A DNA stretch of 64,000 nucleotides, taken from assembly GCA_964570515.1 (NCBI GenBank), contig CAZMYM010000006.1:15613-79612 (forward strand), written 5' to 3'. Both the position numbers and the translations under genes were made by a program. How positions within the stretch are numbered: the first letter of the stretch is position 1; each line of letters begins with the position of its first letter. This DNA is from an uncultured Thermotogae bacterium. GTDB taxonomy: Bacteria > Bipolaricaulota > Bipolaricaulia > UBA7950 > UBA9294. Below are positions 24,826 through 33,704 of this stretch, in pieces. Below the pieces are notes generated by a model. It did no database searches, was not told the DNA's origin, and was given only the letters and a program-made list of their open reading frames with translations.

Positions 24826-25198
24826 GCGACTCCGATTCACTGGCTTGTTCGTATGATGTAATGTATACTGCACCCACCCGAAACGGCAAACCTAGCGAAA
24901 GCTGGAGGCGCAAAGTTACGGGCCTAAGGGAGGAATCCTATGGTCGCCGAACTGCCAAAGGCCATCGAGCGTGGTGCACTTAGCACCACGCGATGTTGTC
25001 TTGCGCGACTCGCTGGTTTCTCCTCCTTAGAACGAGAGCTCTGCTTTTCCTGTTCCAGCCAGTGCGCTGAGCACGGTGGAGAGGCCGTCGCGCTCTTCGG
25101 GTCGTGTGAAGGGTGAGAGGGAGAACAAACGTGTCGCCTCCTTGCGACTCAGCCACGAGCGCAGCATGAGGGGGATGCCTCACTAGCATCCCCCGCTG
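24826..25198 (+). repeat. Direct repeat A, copy 1 (~373 bp; partner at 31734-32117)
   Basis: The two copies are about 85-90% identical by eye. Shared blocks: cttgtt..gtatgatgNaatgtatactgcacc, cccgaaacggcaaacctag, cgcaaagttacgggccta, gggaggaatcct, ggtgtgaagggtgagaggg, ctccttgcgactcagccacgagcgcagcatgaggggg, and a terminal GGGGGATG..CATCCCCC hairpin whose loop differs between the copies. Confidence 0.85.
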
Positions 25199-25399
25199 CG
25201 CGCCTTAAGCTGCTTCTGATTCGCCAGAGCGCCTTCCCGATTGGAAACCGAAGATCCGACTCCGCACGACCTCGCGATAGGGTCTGTGCCCTCCGATCTA
25301 CGAAGCCGACCTGCGCGTGATTAGCGCTCGCATGCCGGGCATCATCTAGCGGACGAAGGAGACGCTCGGTGCTCGGCAGGCGATGAAGGGGGAGCTTCG

Positions 25400-26761
25400 A
25401 TGTTGCAGGGTGGTGGGAGTCCGAAACGTCCGACCGGTATGGTCGGGTTCACGTTTGTCTGGGCGGGACAGATCCTGTCGGTTCTGGCGTCGAGCGCGAC
25501 AAGCTTCGCGTTGACGATCTGGGCCTACCAGACGTACGGGAGTGCGACCGCTCTCGGCGTCATCAGTACCTCGTTCCTGATTCCGTTCATGCTCCTCTCG
25601 CCGGTCGCCGGGGTTCTCGTCGACCGGCACAGCCGGAAGCTGATGATGATGGTCAGCGACGTCGTCGCTGTCGTCGCCACGGTCGGGATTCTGGTGATGC
25701 TCAGCACGGGCGGCCTGCAGATCTGGCATCTGTTCACTGCCGCGGCAGTGATGGGGCTGGGTCACACGTTCCAGTGGCCCGCGTACTCGGCCGCGATCAC
25801 GACGATGCTTCCCAAGGAGCAGTACAACCGCGCCAACGGGATGATGTCGCTGGTCGAGTCCGGCCCAGCCGTCTTCGCTCCGATTCTCGCTGGCGCCCTC
25901 TACCCGATCCTCGGGTTGCGGGGGATCCTCATCCTCGACATCGCGACGTTCTTCATCGCGATTGGCGCGCTCGTCTTCGTCCACATCCCACCGCCCCCGA
26001 AGACGGTCGAGGGACAGGCGGGGAGGGGAAGCATGCTCAAGGAGGCCGTCTACGGCTTCCGCTACATCTTCCAGCGAAAGGGCCTGCTGCACCTGTTGCT
26101 GTTCTTCCTCGCGCTCAACCTCGTGATCGGCCTCGCGTTCAACGTCTTCGACCCGTACATCCTCGAGCGGACGGGAAACAACAGCGCGCATCTCGGCTAC
26201 GTCCGCTCGGCCGCCGCCATCGGCGCGGTGATCGGCGGACTGCTCGTGAGTCTGTGGGGCGGCTTCAAGAGGAAGATGAAGAGCATCCTCCTTGGCGAAG
26301 CGCTGACGGGTGTCACCGCCATGATTTGCTTCGGCGTCGTTCGAAGCCTGCCGTTCTGGATCCTGGCCGCCGGCGTTGGCGCGATCTTCGGCCCCTTCGT
26401 CAACGGGGCAAGCCAGTCGATCTGGCAAGCGAAGGTGGCGCCCGACGTCCAGGGCCGCGTCTTCTCGGCGAGGCGGATGATCGCGTTCGGGATTGGACCG
26501 GTCGTACCCGTCCTCGCCGGCATGCTCGCTGACTACGTAACGGAGCCGGCGATGACCTCGGCAACGTGGCTCTCACGAACGTTCGGTTGGCTGGTCGGCA
26601 CGACGCCCGGATCGGGGATGGCGCTGCAGTTTGTGGTTGCCGGCGTGCTCTACGTTTTGATCGTGCTTGCCGCTGTCTTCTTCATTCCCTCCATTCGCAA
26701 CCTCGAGGACCATCTCCCCGACCACGACGAGATGGAGACTGCCGAGGGGGCAGAAGGATGA
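25400..26761 (+). CDS. MFS transporter (EntS/MFS_3-like efflux family)
   Basis: 453 aa, about 12 TM helices. SD AAGGGGGAG precedes ATG 25400. The stop overlaps the ATG of the downstream APRT-like gene (ATGA). Confidence 0.85.
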   Translation: MLQGGGSPKRPTGMVGFTFVWAGQILSVLASSATSFALTIWAYQTYGSATALGVISTSFLIPFMLLSPVAGVLVDRHSRKLMMMVSDVVAVVATVGILVMLSTGGLQIWHLFTAAAVMGLGHTFQWPAYSAAITTMLPKEQYNRANGMMSLVESGPAVFAPILAGALYPILGLRGILILDIATFFIAIGALVFVHIPPPPKTVEGQAGRGSMLKEAVYGFRYIFQRKGLLHLLLFFLALNLVIGLAFNVFDPYILERTGNNSAHLGYVRSAAAIGAVIGGLLVSLWGGFKRKMKSILLGEALTGVTAMICFGVVRSLPFWILAAGVGAIFGPFVNGASQSIWQAKVAPDVQGRVFSARRMIAFGIGPVVPVLAGMLADYVTEPAMTSATWLSRTFGWLVGTTPGSGMALQFVVAGVLYVLIVLAAVFFIPSIRNLEDHLPDHDEMETAEGAEG

Positions 26762-27282
26762 AGCCGTATCTGGCCAAGATCGACACGAATACCACCGGGA
26801 ACCGCAACGATGTCACGCCGCTGTTCGCGGACCGAGACAGCTTCCGTCAGCTTGTCGACGACCTGGCGCGTCCGTTTCTGAGCGTGGGCATCGACGCGGT
26901 CGTGGCGATCGACGCGCTCGGCTTCATCCTCGGGACGGCGATCGCAGAGCGCCTCGGCGTTGGACTGGTCCCGGCGCGCAAAGGCGGGAAGCTGCCGGTC
27001 GAGGCCATTCATGAGACGTTCGTCGACTACTCCGGAGACCCGAAGGCCCTCGAGATGCGGCGGGATGCGCTGAAGCCGGGGATGAACGTGCTGGTGGTCG
27101 ACGAGTGGGTGGAGACCGGCGCTCAGGTCACGGCGGCGATTGCCCTGGTCGAGTGTCTCGGAGCCCACGTGCGCGGGATCGCCACCATCTGCATGGATCG
27201 CAAAGCAGACACCTCGGAACTGCGCCGAGACTACGCCGTCCACGACGCCTGGAATGACAAGAAGGAAGTCGACGGGAGATAG
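26758..27282 (+). CDS. Adenine phosphoribosyltransferase-family protein (divergent; paralog 1)
   Basis: ORF 26566..27282. ATG at 26758 gives MKPYLAKIDTNTTGNRNDVTPLF... APRT-like core GFILGTAIAERLGVGLVPARKGGKLP and a PRPP-binding loop VLVVDEWVETGAQV (canonical APRT has VLVVDDLLATGGT). 174 aa. Confidence 0.8.
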   Translation: MKPYLAKIDTNTTGNRNDVTPLFADRDSFRQLVDDLARPFLSVGIDAVVAIDALGFILGTAIAERLGVGLVPARKGGKLPVEAIHETFVDYSGDPKALEMRRDALKPGMNVLVVDEWVETGAQVTAAIALVECLGAHVRGIATICMDRKADTSELRRDYAVHDAWNDKKEVDGR

Positions 27283-27334
27283 GAGGAATCCTGGTTCTTG
27301 CGAACTAAGGTACGTGTCCCTCGATCTTACCGAT

Positions 27335-27427
27335 CTGCATGGATCGAACGCGAGCACGTCGGAGCTGCGGCGTGAATACATGGTCCACGACGTCTGGGAT
27401 GACGAGCAAGGTCCCGTGGAGAGATAG
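27335..27427 (+). pseudogene. C-terminal fragment of a third APRT-like gene copy
   Basis: The tail of track ORF 27140..27427 reads ..DLHGSNASTSELRREYMVHDVWDDEQGPVER*. It is collinear with the last ~30 aa of both APRT-like genes (..ICMDRKADTSELRRDYAVHDAWNDKKEVDGR*), and the DNA atctgcatggatcg.. is also shared. Confidence 0.6.
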
Positions 27428-27798
27428 GGTACGTGTCCCCCGATCTCCTGAGAGGTGCAGGAATGCATGTTCGCATCTTGGGTGTGAAAGCAGAGGCAGC
27501 CTAGTTCGTCCGGGTGCTGGCTGAAATCATCGACGTGCCTCCTTTGAAGAAGGCTCGGTGTCACGCCGAGCCGGGCGAGAAGATACCTGATGTTCTCCGG
27601 CGCCTCAAGACGGCCCGAAACGTCCACAGGCATGGGATGCCAATCGGTTGGCGCGGGTTGGCAGCAGTTCGTATCACGAGAAGAAAGAGACTAGAATCAC
27701 AACCCACTGACGCGCTTGACGTCGACGGGTCCCTTAGCACGGAGGATCGGCTTGAGACCAGCGCTTCAGACGCTGTGTCGTACAGAGGAGAGTGGGCA

Positions 27799-28923
27799 AT
27801 GCCCGAGACTGACCGAAGACCGCTCGAGATTCACAGCATCGCGTTCCGCTTCGACGGAAGCGACGTGATCCCGCTGAAGCATCATGCCTTGAGCGACATC
27901 CCACCCCCTTCGATCGGTCGGCCGACCCGCCTTGAGCCCGACTTGCTCGAACTCCCCGTCGATCTCGACCTGGGCAAGCCGGTCCCGACCCCAGAGTACA
28001 TCGAAGGTGAGCGGAACGAGCCGGCGGCGTTCGTGATGGGCGCCCGTCCGAAGATCCAGGTCATCTTCCGCCAGCTTCCGGCGTACGCGGACGAAGCCCT
28101 CTCGATCGGTGCGTCGGGAAACAAGGGCGGGGTGGTCGAGCGAAGCGTCACGCCGGCTTTCGGAGCGTCAGGATTGAGCGATCCTGTCGAGTTCGAGTTG
28201 GCGTCTCCGCTGCCGCAGACCGTGGGCAAGCTGACGCTCTCGCTCGCGTGGTCCGCTGGCAACGCGGGGACGCCGGACGCTTCGATTCCGATCGGATCGA
28301 CGGAACACATGATCTACCTGACCGTCGATCGCCCGGTTGCGCCGTGGGAGAACGAGACTCCGTGGGTCGATGCGCTCGACCTCTCCTGCGAATGGGGAAG
28401 CGGCGCTACGGACAGAGATACGGCTGCAGCGGCGATCACCCGAGGGCTGAACGCGAGTCCGTACCTTCGCTACCACGGGACCACGACGTTTGGGGCGTCG
28501 ACCTTCTTCCTCTCCAGCTTCCTCATGCTGTTCCGCAAGGAGGCCGTCTTCCATCTGAACTGCACCGACTGCGCGGACATGATCGTCACGCTCGCGAACC
28601 TGCTCGGGTGCGACCTGCATCAAGGCAAGGTGTTCGACCTCGAGACGCGGAGGTTCCTGAAGCTTGCCGGAGATCCAGCCGACGACGCGGACTGGGTCTC
28701 GTGTGAATGGAACTTCCACGAGATGGCATGGCTGCACGGCATCGGACCGCAGGCGAGCGTGTACGACGGTTCTCTGCAACTCGACACGGACAAGAACGAT
28801 GCGGACACCGTTCACGTCCCGCAGCTTCCGGCCAAGATGGCGTTCAAGAACTACAAGGCCCTGTTGGTCGAAGACGGACCCTGCAAGCCCGCCAGCTCCG
28901 GTTCCCGGCGGGCTGTGGCCTAG
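27799..28923 (+). CDS. Hypothetical protein with C-terminal transglutaminase-like (papain-fold) Cys-His-Asp core
   Basis: ORF 27514..28923. ATG at 27799 follows GAGGAGAG; alternative starts lie upstream (e.g. ATG 27637). Putative catalytic triad: NCTDCADMIVTLANLLGC (Cys), about 46 aa later NFHEMAWLHG (His), about 15 aa later VYDGSLQLD (Asp). Spacing and motifs resemble transglutaminase-like enzymes. This is my pattern recognition, not a database hit. Confidence 0.6.
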   Translation: MPETDRRPLEIHSIAFRFDGSDVIPLKHHALSDIPPPSIGRPTRLEPDLLELPVDLDLGKPVPTPEYIEGERNEPAAFVMGARPKIQVIFRQLPAYADEALSIGASGNKGGVVERSVTPAFGASGLSDPVEFELASPLPQTVGKLTLSLAWSAGNAGTPDASIPIGSTEHMIYLTVDRPVAPWENETPWVDALDLSCEWGSGATDRDTAAAAITRGLNASPYLRYHGTTTFGASTFFLSSFLMLFRKEAVFHLNCTDCADMIVTLANLLGCDLHQGKVFDLETRRFLKLAGDPADDADWVSCEWNFHEMAWLHGIGPQASVYDGSLQLDTDKNDADTVHVPQLPAKMAFKNYKALLVEDGPCKPASSGSRRAVA

Positions 28924-28932
28924 GAGCGGATC

Positions 28933-29679
28933 ATGAAGAGAGATCTCAAGGCACGATACGGCTTCGGCTCATGGGGAGAACGGCGGGGCGGAGGCGAACG
29001 CCTGCTGGTCCAAGGGTTTGACCCATGGAAGAAGGACTGCATGAACTGGCGCCGAGAGGAGAGACGTGCGCTCCGGGAACCGAAGCAGCGCCTACTCCGC
29101 CGGAGCATGTGGTCTCCTCCGGGCAACCCGAAACAGCGGATTCTCATCGAGGTGAGGGAGACCGCGTCGGCTGAGGCCGCCGCCGAGTGCCTTCTCGACG
29201 TTCTCGGTCAGCACGAGCTCAAGCGCCTTCCGAACGGCTCGAACGACATCGGCGACGTCTGCTTCGTTCACCCGGAGGGGCAGACGCCCGCGATCTTCTG
29301 GACGACCGGGAATCTGTGCATCAGCGTCGTGAGCATCGGACTCAAGCCGATGCCCGTCCTCGATTGGGCACGCCGCCTCAACGCGCGCACCAGCACGAAG
29401 CCGAGAGCACAGGCGTTCGATCTGGCTCTGAAGCCGTCGAAAGGTGACTTGGCGGTGAAGAAGGAGAAGGTCGTGGGAATCGAGCGTCCGAAGGACCTCA
29501 GCGACGAAGCCTTCCTCCAGGTCTTCTCCGAGGGTGCCGATCTCAGCCTGAAGAAGGGCGAGATCCGCATCTGCGCCGCCCAGGAAGGTCCGGTCGCCGT
29601 CGAAGCCTTCGTCGTCGAGCCCGCCCGCCCGCCCCGAGCAGGTCGCCTGGACCTCTCCGCGCGGAAGACTCCGAAGTAA
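28933..29679 (+). CDS. Hypothetical protein (248 aa), operonic with the transglutaminase-like gene
   Basis: SD TAGGAGCGG overlaps the stop of the upstream gene; ATG at 28933. No recognised domain. Confidence 0.55.
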   Translation: MKRDLKARYGFGSWGERRGGGERLLVQGFDPWKKDCMNWRREERRALREPKQRLLRRSMWSPPGNPKQRILIEVRETASAEAAAECLLDVLGQHELKRLPNGSNDIGDVCFVHPEGQTPAIFWTTGNLCISVVSIGLKPMPVLDWARRLNARTSTKPRAQAFDLALKPSKGDLAVKKEKVVGIERPKDLSDEAFLQVFSEGADLSLKKGEIRICAAQEGPVAVEAFVVEPARPPRAGRLDLSARKTPK

Positions 29680-29810
29680 CCTCGCGCCGTGCCTAAGTCG
29701 AGAGGCCCCAAGCGCATGTCTCCGTTCTGTTCACAAGGAACCGCAGTGCTCGGCGCTGCAGGGCACGATCTGATCCCGCTGTCGATCCATCCTCTACAAT
29801 CGGAGCACCG

Positions 29811-30335
29811 ATGAAGCCGTATCTGGCCAAGATCGACACGGACACCACTGGAAACCGCAACGACGTCACGCCGCTGTTCGCGGATCGGGAGAGCTTCAGC
29901 CAACTTGTCGACGATCTGGCTCGGGCGTTTCTGGACGCGGGCATTGATGTGGTCGTCGCGATCGATTCGTTGGGCTTCATCCTTGGGACTGCGATTGCGG
30001 AGCGCCTTGGGGTTGGGCTGGTGCCGGCGTGCAAGGAAGGCAAGCTCCCCGTGCCAGCCGAGCGGGTCGAGTTCGTCGACTACTCCGGACATCAGAAGGC
30101 ACTCGAGATGCGGCGGGACGCACTGAAGACGGGCATGAACGTGCTGATCGTGGACGAGTGGGTCGAAACCGGCGCCCAAGTCAAGGCAGCCATCCTGTTG
30201 GTCGAGCGTCTCGGAGCCTACGTCGGCGGGATTGCCACCATCTGCATGGATCAGAACGCGAGCACGGACGTTCTGCGCCGGGACCACGCCATCCACGACG
30301 TCTGGAATGACGAGAAGGGAGTCGACGGGATATGA
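29811..30335 (+). CDS. Adenine phosphoribosyltransferase-family protein (divergent; paralog 2, ~85% aa identical to paralog 1)
   Basis: MKPYLAKIDTDTTGNRNDVTPLF..VLIVDEWVETGAQV... It is collinear with 26758..27282 over its full length. Confidence 0.8.
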   Translation: MKPYLAKIDTDTTGNRNDVTPLFADRESFSQLVDDLARAFLDAGIDVVVAIDSLGFILGTAIAERLGVGLVPACKEGKLPVPAERVEFVDYSGHQKALEMRRDALKTGMNVLIVDEWVETGAQVKAAILLVERLGAYVGGIATICMDQNASTDVLRRDHAIHDVWNDEKGVDGI

Positions 30336-30622
30336 GGTACGTGTCTCCCTAACTCGCCACACCAGTAGGGCGCGAGGCCTCGAACCCCGTACGAGCGCGG
30401 AAACCGGCTTCAAGCGACCGCATGTCAAACATGCAATCTGTAGTTGTGTCTGCTAACATGATCGAAGCGAGTGGGACGCTACTGGTCTGGATTTGGACTC
30501 CAGCCCGCAAGCAGGGCAGCTCACTCGGACAGGTTGTGGACACCTGTCCTATCCATTAGCTTGCCCAGCCTGCTGCAGCGCCCCCTCAGTGATTCCCGGT
30601 TTTGTGCTATCGTGCCCATACG

Positions 30623-31015
30623 CTAGGCACCGTCGTTCCTGATCTGGCGGAAGGCATTATCTAAGACAACAACAAGCATCTCACCTTTCTGCGTGGGAAC
30701 GAATCTCCTGGCCGATCCGATGTCACTCAGTCCCAATACTCTCGCCAGCTTCCTTCCCGAGACAAAGACACCCAAACTCGTCTTCTGCTTCCTTGTCGGA
30801 TACGAATTCGCATCACCCTCGGATGCTGGGCAAATCGCAAACGCCTTCTTCCCCTCGTCCACAAGGATACTCACAAATCTCGGATTACCAAGCATCTCAA
30901 AAGCCGCCCGGTTGATTGCAAGAGTACCGCCTTTATGCATCGACACGAGAGGCTCTTTGGAACGTCCTCCCCGGGCTCCCCTCTCAAGAGGTCGAAACAT
31001 GTACGTATCGCTCAT
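30623..31015 (-). CDS. Hypothetical protein (130 aa)
   Basis: ORF 30623..31033. Internal ATG at 31015 follows AGAGGGGTGATCAGT. Protein-like composition (..TLAINRAAFEMLGNPRFVSILVDEGKKAFAICPASEG..). No recognised domain. Confidence 0.5.
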   Translation of the reverse strand: MSDTYMFRPLERGARGGRSKEPLVSMHKGGTLAINRAAFEMLGNPRFVSILVDEGKKAFAICPASEGDANSYPTRKQKTSLGVFVSGRKLARVLGLSDIGSARRFVPTQKGEMLVVVLDNAFRQIRNDGA

Positions 31016-31372
31016 ACTGATCACCCCTCTCATGTTGTGGGATTCTACTTCGTTTCTTGCTCCATGTCAAGCCTCACGCAAGAAAAACCTCACTTCGGCA
31101 TACATTTCACTCGCGTCTCTGCTCCGCAAACCACCACCTAGTCTTGGGTTCGGGGACATCTCGGAAAGCGCGCTGTTTGTCAAGGGAGATAACCTCGGTG
31201 CACCCCCTGTGTAGTCGTTTTACGCAGCCGCTTGTCCGGTGAGTCGGAGTCATCTCTTCGCTGTCCAGGCAGCAATAGGTTGTTCGGGTGACGTGTCGCA
31301 ATCACATACGGGAACCTCTTCGGGTTCATGTCCCCGCCGCGCTCACGCCTCCCTCTTCGACTCTACCTATGT

Positions 31373-31615
31373 GGGAGTTCCGGAGACAGGGGAGTTCCGG
31401 GGACACAGTACGAGGGGAGTTCTAGGGACGCAGTACGAAACTCCGGTGTTCGTGAGTGCACCGTGTTGGGCAGGCGTGACGTCGCAGGCGGGTCCTAGAT
31501 GGGATCCCAATTGGTGGTGAAACCCGAGCGTATCTCCTACGCGGATTGCACCCTCATACGGGATCGGCTTCGGGATCGTCAGCCCGGAGTCGTACGCATT
31601 CAGAACGTGGTCCCG
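31373..31615 (+). repeat. Repeat B' (degenerate copy of the 3' end and downstream region of the methyltransferase-like gene at 32487..33704), beginning with a triplicated ~24-27 bp unit
   Basis: Units gggagttccggagacagg / ggagttccggggacacagtacgag / gggagttctagggacgcagtacgaaact. The following ~170 bp match 32450-32632. The minus-strand frame still reads ..YDSGLTIPKPIPYEGAIRVGDTLGFHHQLGS.., homologous to the intact gene's C-terminus. Confidence 0.75.
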
Positions 31616-31733
31616 GCGGATGGGGCTCCAAAGGCAGAACAGGCTCTAGAGGAATCATGATGCAAGCTCCGATCCAGGGTTCAACTGGGTTCTGCCGCAA
31701 TTCACGACGAAGTGCAGAGCTTTGAAACTCGCC

Positions 31734-32117
31734 GGGACTGCGCAGTCTTGCTTGTTTGCCCGTATGATGGAATGTATACTGCACCTACCCGAAACGGCAA
31801 ACCTAGTAAAAGCTAGGGACGCAAAGTTACGGGCCTACGGGAGGAATCCTAAGGTCGCCGAACTGCCGAAGGTCGTCGAACATGGCGCTCCGCGTGCTGT
31901 GTGACGCGTTCCTGAGAGACTCGCTGGCCTTCCTTCCCTCCTTAGAAGAAGAGAGCTCTGCGATTCCTGTTTCAGCCAGTGCGCTGGGCGCGGTGGAGAG
32001 GCCGTCGCGCTCTTCGAGTGGTGTGAAGGGTGAGAGGGGGCAGAAAGACGCGCAACCTCCTTGCGACTCAGCCACGAGCGCAGCATGAGGGGGATGTATC
32101 GGCAGCATCCCCCGCTG
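31734..32117 (+). repeat. Direct repeat A, copy 2
   Basis: See copy 1 at 24826-25198. It sits between repeat B' and the RHH gene. Confidence 0.85.
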
Positions 32118-32207
32118 TGCCTCCCGAGCTCTTTCTGTGTCGCTTGCGCGCGTTCTTCTTTCGGATACCGGGAGGTCGGACCACTAACTCGGACAGAGGA
32201 GGCTGGC

Positions 32208-32387
32208 ATGGCAAGGGAAACGAAGCAACAGCGGGCCACGATGAGCGTCTACATCCCGCAAAGCAAGGCGAGCAAGTGTCTAGTGGGGCGCCTCAGCAGG
32301 CTGGCTGAGAAACGGGACCGCTCAGTCAACTACCTCGTCATCGAGGCGATCTGCGAGTACCTCGATCGCGTGGAGAAGAAAAAGTAG
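32208..32387 (+). CDS. Ribbon-helix-helix (CopG/Arc/MetJ-like) DNA-binding protein, 59 aa
   Basis: ATG at 32208 follows GGACAGAGGAGGCTGGC. MARETKQQRATMSVYIPQSKASKCLVGRLSRLAEKRDRSVNYLVIEAICEYLDRVEKKK shows the beta-strand (SVYIP), helix, helix pattern typical of RHH antitoxins and repressors. It is the tail of track ORF 32061..32387. Confidence 0.7.
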   Translation: MARETKQQRATMSVYIPQSKASKCLVGRLSRLAEKRDRSVNYLVIEAICEYLDRVEKKK

Positions 32388-32419: not shown

Positions 32420-32632
32420 TGCCATTGGCGGAGTTCCCGGGACACAGTACGAAACTTGCGTACTCACATCTGGCGAGTATGTTGCGTCAGGCGCGCGTAA
32501 CGTCACAGACGAGTCCTGGATGAGATCCCAATTCGTAGTGGAACTCGAGCGTATCTCCGCCGCGGATCGCACCATCGTACGGGATCGGCTTCGGGATCGT
32601 CAGCCCGGAATCGTACGCGCGAAGAACGTAAT
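32420..32632 (+). repeat. Repeat B (single ggagttcccgggacacagtacgaaact unit plus the 3' end of the methyltransferase-like gene)
   Basis: Matches 31391-31615. Contains the palindromic core TCCCGGGA and a hairpin AGTACG-AAACTT-GCGTACT immediately downstream of the minus-strand gene. Confidence 0.75.
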
Positions 32633-33704
32633 CCCGATGGACGGTGACCGTTGTGAGCAGCATCGGAGTGTATCGCCCCTCCAGGGAGTGAGGGATGTGG
32701 ATCGAAGCCGCGGGCAATCGATCATCACTCAAGTCGGTCCACTCCGTGATTGTCGCGGCGTTCAGCTCGAAGACGGTACCCAGGAAGAGGCGATCGCGCT
32801 CGGGTGGGACAGGCTCGGCGGCCTCATTACCCAACTTGCTCCTGTTGTTTCCTAGGAAACTGAACTCCTTCGAGACATCGACCAAGTACGCATCGACACG
32901 AACCGACTCGGGAATGAGGGTCGCTAGGGGAGCCTGAGCCAGGAGGTGCCGCGCGATGGGAACCTGGGGCTCCTTCTTCAGACACACGTTCATCGTTTCG
33001 CTCAGGAGGATGTCGGGCGGCCGATCTGCCAAGACTTCGTAGTGGCAGGCGTCGACCGCTTCGTACGCCCGAATGCGACCACTCAGCCCGAGTGCATCGA
33101 TGACCGTTCTGGCCGAGTCGACCGAAGCTTCGTGAATGTCGAGGAGTGTGACCTGTAGCTCGTCTGGGCCGAAGAGGGCCATCGACGGGAGGGCGAGCAC
33201 GGCGTACGGTCCACAGCCGGCGTACAGCAGGTGGGTCGGTCGATCCGGATGAGCAACCCTCACTTCTTGGATCGCCTGCTGCACGCCGCGGGCGAAGACG
33301 ACCGTCCGCACGATGTCGTCGGCACACCGGCCGGCCATGGTCGGAGACAATGCGAGTCCGCTGGAAGTGAAGGTCTCACCATCACCACGGACCTCGGTCG
33401 GCTCGATCCGAACCGTGGCGTGGTCTCGCAGGAGATCCGTCAAGAGACCCAACTCCGCTCTCAAGGCGAAGGCGGGCGTCTGTTCGTCAAGGATCGTGCT
33501 CGCGAGCTGTCGAAGCCGCTCGTCGGACATCATGTGTGCAAGAGTACATCGTGTGTGGCCGCCGCCGGTCAGTGGATCTCGAATCGCGGGGGCCACTCTG
33601 AGCATCCCAACGGGGTCCGCACCGGCGAGAAGATCAATCCAGAGGTGACGATTAGTACATCCTCCCCGTAGGCGACGGGGGACTGGGCGGGGAGAATGTA
33701 ACAC
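32487..33704 (-). CDS. Putative class I SAM-dependent methyltransferase-like protein
   Basis: 405-aa ORF. Motif I-like LLYAGCGPYAVLAL, an acidic post-motif II segment VTLLDIHEASVD, and AYEAVDACHYEV. The start is uncertain (several in-frame Met). The function is inferred from motifs only. Confidence 0.6.
   Translation of the reverse strand: MLHSPRPVPRRLRGGCTNRHLWIDLLAGADPVGMLRVAPAIRDPLTGGGHTRCTLAHMMSDERLRQLASTILDEQTPAFALRAELGLLTDLLRDHATVRIEPTEVRGDGETFTSSGLALSPTMAGRCADDIVRTVVFARGVQQAIQEVRVAHPDRPTHLLYAGCGPYAVLALPSMALFGPDELQVTLLDIHEASVDSARTVIDALGLSGRIRAYEAVDACHYEVLADRPPDILLSETMNVCLKKEPQVPIARHLLAQAPLATLIPESVRVDAYLVDVSKEFSFLGNNRSKLGNEAAEPVPPERDRLFLGTVFELNAATITEWTDLSDDRLPAASIHIPHSLEGRYTPMLLTTVTVHRDYVLRAYDSGLTIPKPIPYDGAIRGGDTLEFHYELGSHPGLVCDVTRA

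Follow-up and report, generated by a model that had tools for sequence, protein, structure and literature searches.

In a 64-kb chromosomal stretch of contig CAZMYM010000006.1 (hereafter the window), two direct repeats, A1 and A2, each hold an aptamer for the second messenger cyclic di-GMP (c-di-GMP), and we read each repeat, with a probability of roughly three in four, as a cis-acting c-di-GMP riboswitch leader of ~360 bp that joins a promoter, a GEMM-I aptamer and a ~230-nt expression platform. Comparison of the sequences establishes the identity of the aptamer, the membership of both copies in a wider family of leaders, constraint at the level of RNA, and the absence of coding function. Judged from its relatives, the module represents a family confined to one lineage, with a solitary 59-aa ribbon-helix-helix (RHH) DNA-binding protein as native cargo, and the A1 copy would place an operon of an MFS transporter and a phosphoribosyltransferase (PRTase) under c-di-GMP control, like the RHH unit.

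A scan of the window at Rfam gathering thresholds returned exactly two RNAs, both full-length c-di-GMP-I aptamers (GEMM-I, RF01051) on the forward strand, one in A1 at 24875–24959 (73.8 bits) and one in A2 at 31786–31870 (76.0 bits); both cover model positions 1–87 of 87, and the gathering score of RF01051 is 35 bits. By these matches the aptamers of both repeats are ordinary members of the family. An earlier note on this DNA had described a conserved GC-rich leader ending in a Shine–Dalgarno (SD) sequence, GGGAGGAATCCT, and a start codon. The leader is present as described, but the riboswitch went unrecognised, and the supposed SD and start codon are bases of the aptamer P2 stem-loop and of UAUGG, which we take to be half of the GAAA-tetraloop receptor in A1. 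Together with five further loci introduced below, the two aptamers form a set of seven, in which the aptamer helices were 93–100% paired, with two-sided changes at column pairs 22:37, 25:34 and 48:81. All seven have G at the equivalent of Vc2 G20 (before GCAAA) and keep the GCAAA adenines and the CC of GCCGAA, the CC being retained also in A1, which has GCCAAA where the other aptamers have GCCGAA. Equivalents of A47 and C92 are likewise present in 7/7. Vc2 numbering was mapped through the Rfam consensus and agrees with the correspondence of Bc1 G11/A38/C81 to G20/A47/C92 (PMC11218506). G20, A47 and C92 are contacts of c-di-GMP (PMC6140456, PMC11218506), and G rather than A at position 20 separates c-di-GMP sensors from cyclic GMP–AMP (cGAMP) sensors (PMC6140456). 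Since the G20 equivalent is G throughout the set, the aptamers are best read as sensors of c-di-GMP, not of cGAMP. A GAAA tetraloop with an 11-nt receptor (CCUAAG/UAUGG) occurs in A1 and the five other loci; a type-I tetraloop with its receptor has been described for Bc1 (PMC11218506). A2 is the exception, alone among the seven in having AAAA for GAAA and both receptor halves altered (CCUACG, UAAGG), and its receptor site is polymorphic: with A for C at 31838, the strain contig L036 reads CCUAAG, the canonical sequence.

Self-comparison of the window by blastn aligned A1 (24840–25236) with A2 (31747–32155) at 80.4% identity over 409 columns (E = 6e-102), bearing out the earlier report of two direct repeat copies, and a repeat search resolved three collinear blocks, 24840–24977/31751–31888 (86%), 25034–25129/31951–32046 (90%) and 25115–25236/32034–32155 (76%). 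Identity was uneven, reaching 90% in the aptamer and 86–93% in the 3' blocks, 55% in the hairpin T1 that follows the aptamer, and near-random values in the flanks. The figure of 85–90% given previously thus holds for the aptamer and the 3' blocks, but not for T1 or for the repeats overall (about 80%). Similarity sets in near 24840/31750, at the -35 region, and tails off 10–40 nt past the terminal hairpin, and the longest run free of differences, 41 nt at 25137–25177, lies inside the 3' domain, not in the aptamer. As the earlier note had also seen, both copies end in the hairpin GGGGGATG..CATCCCCC, its stem kept and its loop diverged. Neither terminal inverted repeats nor target-site duplications were observed at A1 or A2.

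The module recurs in related genomes, the family loci probably coming from Bipolaricaulota-type bacteria, and the window itself is probably of Bipolaricaulota/Bipolaricaulia origin. Homologues of the PRTases labelled Bipolaricaulota or Bipolaricaulia are 71–78% identical, a syntenic contig is labelled Bipolaricaulia SPBW01, and a contig from a Bipolaricaulota metagenome-assembled genome, L018, encodes a Cyclase 94% identical to that of the window and so represents a close relative. L018 carries a closely similar aptamer (76.3 bits); an RHH gene (70% identical to the window RHH) follows it in the same orientation at a distance of about 400 nt, and a PRTase adjoins this riboswitch–RHH unit. When the two RHH proteins were used as bait in metagenome contigs, 15 loci were recovered. 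At L021, L027, L031 and L034 the RHH gene is preceded, 310–360 nt away and in the same orientation, by a c-di-GMP-I aptamer (77–79 bits), and the other ten RHH homologue loci have neither aptamer nor 3' domain. Linkers from the terminal hairpin T2 to the start codon are unconserved, spanning 85–199 nt overall and 85–185 nt before RHH at six loci. Because five other loci carry the same module upstream of an RHH orthologue, A2–RHH is, on this comparative evidence, the ancestral arrangement and one of six independent instances, and A1 is by the same token a paralogous promoter-to-T2 copy, the seventh leader, placed before the MFS–PRTase operon. A1 resembles A2 (80%) more than either resembles L018, which would make their duplication younger than the split from L018; their divergence is about equal to that between PRTase1 and PRTase2 (81% at the nucleotide level). 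The copy at the ancestral locus, A2, may differ in ligand sensitivity, the derived A1 keeping the canonical tetraloop contact. The 374-aa gene described below and the PRTase were considered as conserved cargo and rejected, as neither the loci orthologous to the 374-aa gene (L007–L014) nor the PRTase loci L017, L019 and L020 have a riboswitch. Two further observations concern these loci. L022 holds a different c-di-GMP-I aptamer (1063–978, reverse strand, 71.7 bits) with a short leader and no 3' domain, followed by an SD ~40 nt downstream and a gene for a predicted secreted protein, convergent with the RHH homologue. A gene with an RF-1 domain (ArfB-like, GGQ) is divergent from the riboswitch promoter at L018 (3364–3708, forward) and L021 (2112–2516, reverse), and so is a second neighbour that recurs beside the module.

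Downstream of the aptamer the leaders share an ordered series of elements: T1, a pyrimidine-rich and G-poor stretch, a poorly alignable central part, the invariant motif CUCU(C/U)CG(G/A)G, then GUGAGA (5/7), one or two CCUCC motifs, CAGCC(U/A)C, an invariant GCGCAG, and the two-tier hairpin T2. In A1, on the forward strand, T1 (24963–24995) stands directly 3' of the aptamer and is terminator-like, with a T-rich tail, GATGTTGTCTT. The conserved 3' domain, found only together with the aptamer, occupies 24996–25158 and includes the pyrimidine-rich stretch (25017–25029), the invariant motif CUCUUCGGG (25093–25101), GUGAGA and an anti-SD-like CCUCC motif (25137–25141). T2 follows at 25159–25201, built as GCGCAGC, internal loop, GGGGGAUGC, loop, GCAUCCCCC and GCUGCGC. 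In A2, also on the forward strand, covariation and folding place T1 at 31874–31906 and T2 at 32078–32120, with the 3' domain between them at 31907–32077 (motif CUCUUCGAG at 32010–32018, CCUCC at 32056–32060). T2 is a very stable two-tier hairpin, GGGGGAUG..CAUCCCCC, with loops that differ between A1 and A2, and the segment containing it folds at -37 to -45 kcal/mol in 7/7. Folding puts CCUCC within a hairpin loop in both A1 and A2.

Several comparisons indicate that this structure is maintained. T1 shows four two-sided compensatory changes between A1 and A2, and across the seven sequences 5/6 of the T1 pairs are compensated. The basal and upper stems of T2 covary in the same set, and two central helices covary too, on shakier alignment. 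In the RNAalifold structure of the alignment, which consists of seven sequences in three tight subgroups with a central part poorly alignable between them, 93.9% of cells were paired, compared with 36–46% in controls slid by 1–3 columns, and 19 pairs were changed on both sides, compared with 2–7; the observed covariation was reached in 0/500 column shuffles. A profile of the 3' domain matched only beside family aptamers, in 7/7, and nowhere else in about 300 kb comprising the window and the related loci, including the ten RHH loci without a riboswitch. Rfam searched with the 3' domain at E ≤ 5 returned only noise. The strain contig L036 differs from the window at 10/109 positions in the flank upstream of A2, at 3/374 from promoter to T2 (Fisher p = 3.7e-5 against the flank) and at 1/252 between T1 and T2 inclusive (p = 3.8e-5); its sole difference within T1 to T2 of A2 falls in the T1 loop, with none in 31907–32077. 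As judged from these alignments, the 3' domain is shown to be a constrained RNA under purifying selection. Two local pairings were tried and dropped. A hairpin at CUCU.CG.G (H3) is not claimed, its stems differing between subgroups and its 3' arm varying uncompensated in L027, L031 and L034, and a pairing of CCCG in the 5' flank with CGGG of the motif, suggested by RNAalifold, involves nearly invariant columns and no compensatory change.

A separate observation concerns T1. In the strain contig L001, 4/8 differences over 21 kb fall inside A1: three are in T1, where 24992 G>A breaks a pair and the changes 24963 C>T and 24988 A>G leave wobble pairs, and the fourth single-nucleotide polymorphism lies at 25023. 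Gene conversion was rejected as their source, only 2/4 being A2-like. Because these polymorphisms cluster in T1, which is also the part most diverged between A1 and A2, T1 looks like a fast-evolving tuning element.

Each of the seven units has a sigma-70-like promoter at the same offset, with TATAGT or TATACT as the -10 box, in keeping with the earlier description of an AT-rich, promoter-like segment. The A1 promoter (24840–24869, forward) has a weak -35 box, CTGGCT, an 18-nt spacer and TATACT at 24864–24869, and the A2 promoter (31752–31780, forward) has TTGTTT at 31752–31757, a 17-nt spacer and TATACT at 31775–31780; across the six units other than A1 the -35 box varies among TTGATT, TTGTTT, TTGTCA and GTGTCA with the 17-nt spacer. 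A spacer motif, ATGATG(G/T)AATGTATA, is common to 5/7 units and occurs within the window only at the two repeat promoters (A1, ATGATGTAATGTATA, 24853–24867, forward; A2, ATGATGGAATGTATA, 31764–31778, forward), where it is a possible operator. Measured from just past the -10 box to where T2 ends, the leader is 321–348 nt long in 7/7, and no promoter-like site was found in the leader or in the T2-to-gene linker of any of the seven units, among them the 199-nt linker from A1 to the MFS gene.

How such a leader could act in cis can be sketched. Transcription would start a few nucleotides past TATACT and continue beyond T2 into the gene. On binding the ligand, the aptamer would have its P2 3' strand and its 3' tail locked, and elements of the 3' domain would be released; in the ligand-free state both strands would be available for base-pairing to the H3-loop motif and to the CCUCC region, and the state of the 3' domain would decide the outcome, either with CCUCC masking the SD or with T1 and T2 halting transcription. 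Three alternative helices could accomplish this. The tail AAGG(U/C) would replace the receptor strand AUGGUC on GGCCU (columns 52–56:90–94), the freed P2 3' strand CCG(A/G)A would form a helix with U(U/C)CGG, the invariant loop motif (78–82:238–242), and the tail AGG(U/C) would pair with (A/G)CCU of the CCUCC motif (90–93:280–283). Two columns covary with column 81, namely column 48, with which it pairs in the aptamer, and column 239. The SDs of RHH (AAGGAGG) and MFS (AAGGGGG) are complementary to CCUCC, and in silico the SD pairs with the pyrimidine-rich or CCUCC motifs of the leader. As a working hypothesis from these models, the three helices form a coherent picture of coupling.

A number of results weigh against the cis-acting reading or its details. 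The alternative helices are only 4–5 bp long with one compensatory event each, about ten comparable candidates arise as background in the same scan, and the in-silico partner of the SD varies between loci. No canonical terminator/antiterminator or SD-sequestering helix adjoins the aptamer. Single-sequence folds of the 3' domain give weak z-scores (-2.4 for A1, +0.7 for A2). T1 and T2 have no consistent U-tract, T1 of A1 alone having a T-rich tail and the T2 tails being not U-rich in most members; these missing tracts count for little, since U-tract terminators are unenriched genome-wide (12 found against 12.1 expected, and 5 against 6.0 in a second scan). The duplication ends exactly after T2 and the linkers are unconserved, which fits a standalone RNA as well. 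With its tetraloop and receptor altered, A2 may have a weakened response to the ligand. Finally, no GGDEF, EAL or HD-GYP gene lies within the window, the region in which c-di-GMP metabolism was sought.

A bolder proposal, which we offer tentatively and consider doubtful, is that aptamer and 3' domain constitute one undescribed composite riboregulator of ~340 nt. The 3' domain would then be a functional RNA in itself, be it a second sensor, a platform for a protein or a c-di-GMP-gated trans-acting RNA with CCUCC seed loops, and the unit from promoter to T2 a portable cassette that brings new operons under c-di-GMP control.

Somewhat less probable, and in our judgement unlikely, is a standalone c-di-GMP-gated small RNA (sRNA), in which T1 would be a regulated terminator, a ~200-nt body would expose CCUCC seed loops, T2 would terminate transcription, and the neighbouring genes would be expressed separately. 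The conserved and duplicated unit does span exactly promoter to T2, with T2 extremely stable and the sequence beyond it unconserved, and the hairpin-loop CCUCC of A1 and A2 resembles that of SD-targeting sRNAs. Riboswitch-controlled non-coding RNAs also have precedent in the B12 riboswitch–EutX/Rli55 system and in SreA/SreB, which the present module resembles in having an aptamer, a structured non-coding body and a strong end hairpin as module boundary. In contrast to those systems, a same-strand protein gene without a detectable promoter of its own follows the leader at every locus here. The recurrence of the module 85–185 nt upstream of a same-strand RHH orthologue in six independent loci, with no promoter-like site in any linker, favours a leader over an sRNA, and the ten aptamer-less RHH loci, which also lack the 3' domain, indicate that the two parts are a coupled unit.

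We regard as more improbable still a sensing role for the 3' domain, which as an orphan aptamer or protein-binding RNA would add a second sensor and make the leader a two-input tandem riboregulator. Its invariant CUCU.CG.G, CAGCC.C and GCGCAG motifs do lie between covarying stems, and strong purifying selection on a domain that matches nothing in Rfam would suit such a role. However, the same motifs equally fit switching or anti-SD pairing, the gene context suggests no candidate ligand, and the set of seven falls into three tight subgroups whose central parts align poorly with one another.

The order of the genes around the repeats is Na/Pi–PhoU (reverse), A1, the MFS transporter (25400–26761, forward), the APRT-like PRTase1 (26758–27282, forward), unknown proteins of 374 and 248 aa, PRTase2 (29811–30335, forward; a PRTase1 paralogue, 81% nucleotide identity), a 130-aa gene (reverse), A2, the 59-aa RHH gene that is the conserved cargo of the leader (32208–32387, forward; a weak match to RHH_1), a 348-aa gene (reverse), a TAtT-like protein and a sulfotransferase. 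The RHH protein was rejected as a type II RelB-like antitoxin (25.9 bits against a cutoff of 50), and so was a toxin partner, the next gene being convergent or no credible open reading frame (ORF) following in the window, L018, L021 and L031. The 374- and 248-aa genes (27799–29679) form a conserved pair without a match in Pfam, NCBIfam or PADLOC, and PADLOC found nothing among the bracketed genes as a whole. Their family is rare (23 clusters among 5.8 billion), with members in Bipolaricaulia, NC10 and unnamed metagenome contigs, of which some reach about 600–630 aa. At L010 a separate 248-aa gene comes after the 630-aa protein, and there at least the extra length does not reflect a fusion of the pair. 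A fragment at 31416–31623 duplicates the 3' end of the 348-aa gene (32430–32644, 76%), and the two ~210-bp copies, which flank a ~800-bp segment with A2 and RHH, look like an insertion or duplication scar. Short repeats after PRTase1 (27187–27265 resembling 27333–27411 at 79%, and 27333–27447 resembling the 3' end of PRTase2 at 30240–30355 at 75%) are remnants of the PRTase duplication. Between PRTase2 and A2, a segment of low GC (30400–31400, 52–55% against 63%) holds the 130-aa reverse-strand ORF, which matches no family, and, at 31070–31042 on the reverse strand, a promoter-like site close to consensus, TTGACA-17-TAGAAT.

That the repeats are neutral remnants of segmental duplication, recombination substrates for the bracketed cassette, or members of a family of dispersed repeats of the repetitive extragenic palindromic (REP) or miniature inverted-repeat transposable element (MITE) kind is very improbable. 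The similar divergence of PRTase1/PRTase2 and A1/A2 does suggest a single duplication episode, and local gene content differs from that of relatives, but the divergence between A1 and A2 is strongly non-uniform with pairing kept, and purifying selection acts on the leader. The earlier note had held that the repeats could drive deletion or amplification of the cassette. In seven contigs of the population the arrangement is the same, in whole or in part, without a deletion junction, and six ENA/JGI metagenome contigs, 99.8–100% identical, are unrearranged between the repeats wherever they span them. The idea finds no support in relatives either, the 374/248 pair being conserved in those without the repeats. 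In a relative of ~73% nucleotide identity, the pair directly adjoins a 341(reverse)/TAtT/sulfotransferase block, and a riboswitch is absent there, as are MFS, PRTase and RHH genes; the bracketed segment is therefore no simple island. The note had also raised a generic REP-like element. The window holds only two copies by repeat search and 3'-domain profile, and none turned up in the genome, plasmid or called-ORF searches. The exact 20-mer CCTCCTTGCGACTCAGCCAC gave two matches among 185,579 genomes, both in one unrelated gene and ending with the 20-mer, as expected of chance, and an exact 24-mer of the 3' domain gave none among metagenome contigs, not even itself, exact-word searches of this kind being insensitive to diverged copies; blastn of the unit against a plasmid collection gave no match. 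With its fixed association with the RHH gene, the element is locus-specific, and a dispersed repeat was accordingly rejected.

Coding potential was assessed on both strands. The A1 ORF of 58 codons (24940–25116, forward) corresponds in A2 to a sequence with AAG for ATG and an internal TGA; the earlier note had reported the lost ATG correctly, but the frame, which it thought lost, is kept together with the stop, with an in-frame 6-nt indel. It is thus the missing start codon and the internal TGA, not loss of frame, that make the ORF noncoding in A2. A 2-nt indel shifts the frame of the reverse-strand ORFs (69 and 93 aa) between the copies, A1 and A2 show no excess of synonymous differences in any frame, and the ORF opening at the aptamer AUG has 58, 0, 9, 70, 107, 41 and 23 codons in the seven homologues. 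The earlier preference for an RNA or regulatory element over a protein is upheld by this lack of a conserved ORF and of a synonymous excess. Hence a small Cys-rich peptide from the A1 ORF, or a reverse-strand protein of 69 or 93 aa (the latter at 31827–32108 in A2), is barely credible, for although these ORFs are open and the 58- and 93-aa ones are called in metagenome annotations, the 93-aa ORF has no homologue beyond its own cluster among called ORFs. The public metagenome calls of 58-aa (24940–25116, forward) and 93-aa (31827–32108, reverse) genes across the leaders are spurious.

The cis-acting leader invites comparison with described c-di-GMP riboswitches. It resembles RF01051 members such as Vc2 of Vibrio cholerae in its full-length model match at about twice the gathering score, its two-hairpin architecture with covarying stems, and its position as a 5' leader on the strand of the downstream genes. 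It differs in having a ~230-nt conserved domain outside any described GEMM-I model, no adjoining canonical terminator or SD-sequestering helix, an RHH cargo, and a host of the Bipolaricaulota-type phylum. Bc1 of Bacillus thuringiensis has a class I type I aptamer and a 220-bp expression platform with terminators T1 and T2, for which dual control of transcription and translation with a dominant downstream hairpin has been proposed (PMC11218506). The present leader shares with Bc1 a class I aptamer, with the type I tetraloop and receptor in 6/7 leaders, a long conserved platform (>200 nt) and two hairpins far from the ribosome-binding site, but the platform is longer here, the platform sequences are dissimilar and the cargo of Bc1 is mcpE (chemotaxis) in place of RHH. 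The Bc1 terminators are 28 bp apart and both have poly(U), whereas the hairpins here are roughly 165–190 nt apart, with inconsistent U-tracts and conserved motifs between them; with a T-rich tail only at T1 of A1 and T2 tails not U-rich in most members, close dual rho-independent terminators of the Bc1 type were rejected. Full-text searches of the literature turned up no paper connecting c-di-GMP riboswitches with RHH gene regulation and none mentioning both riboswitches and Bipolaricaulota. The aptamer class is known; the new part is the extended variant with an undescribed structured tail of ~230 nt.

From sequence, the leaders give evidence that bacteria of the uncultured Bipolaricaulota-type phylum control genes in response to c-di-GMP. 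Riboswitch leaders explain the spurious ORF calls in current annotations of these genomes. By linking the messenger to a gene for a transcription factor, the leaders imply a cascade from riboswitch to regulator, and the selected 230-nt extension, tied to one GEMM-I subfamily, is a candidate for a new long-range mechanism of expression platforms. The A1 copy indicates that such a regulatory module can be duplicated as a unit, which would have rewired a transporter and PRTase operon to c-di-GMP.

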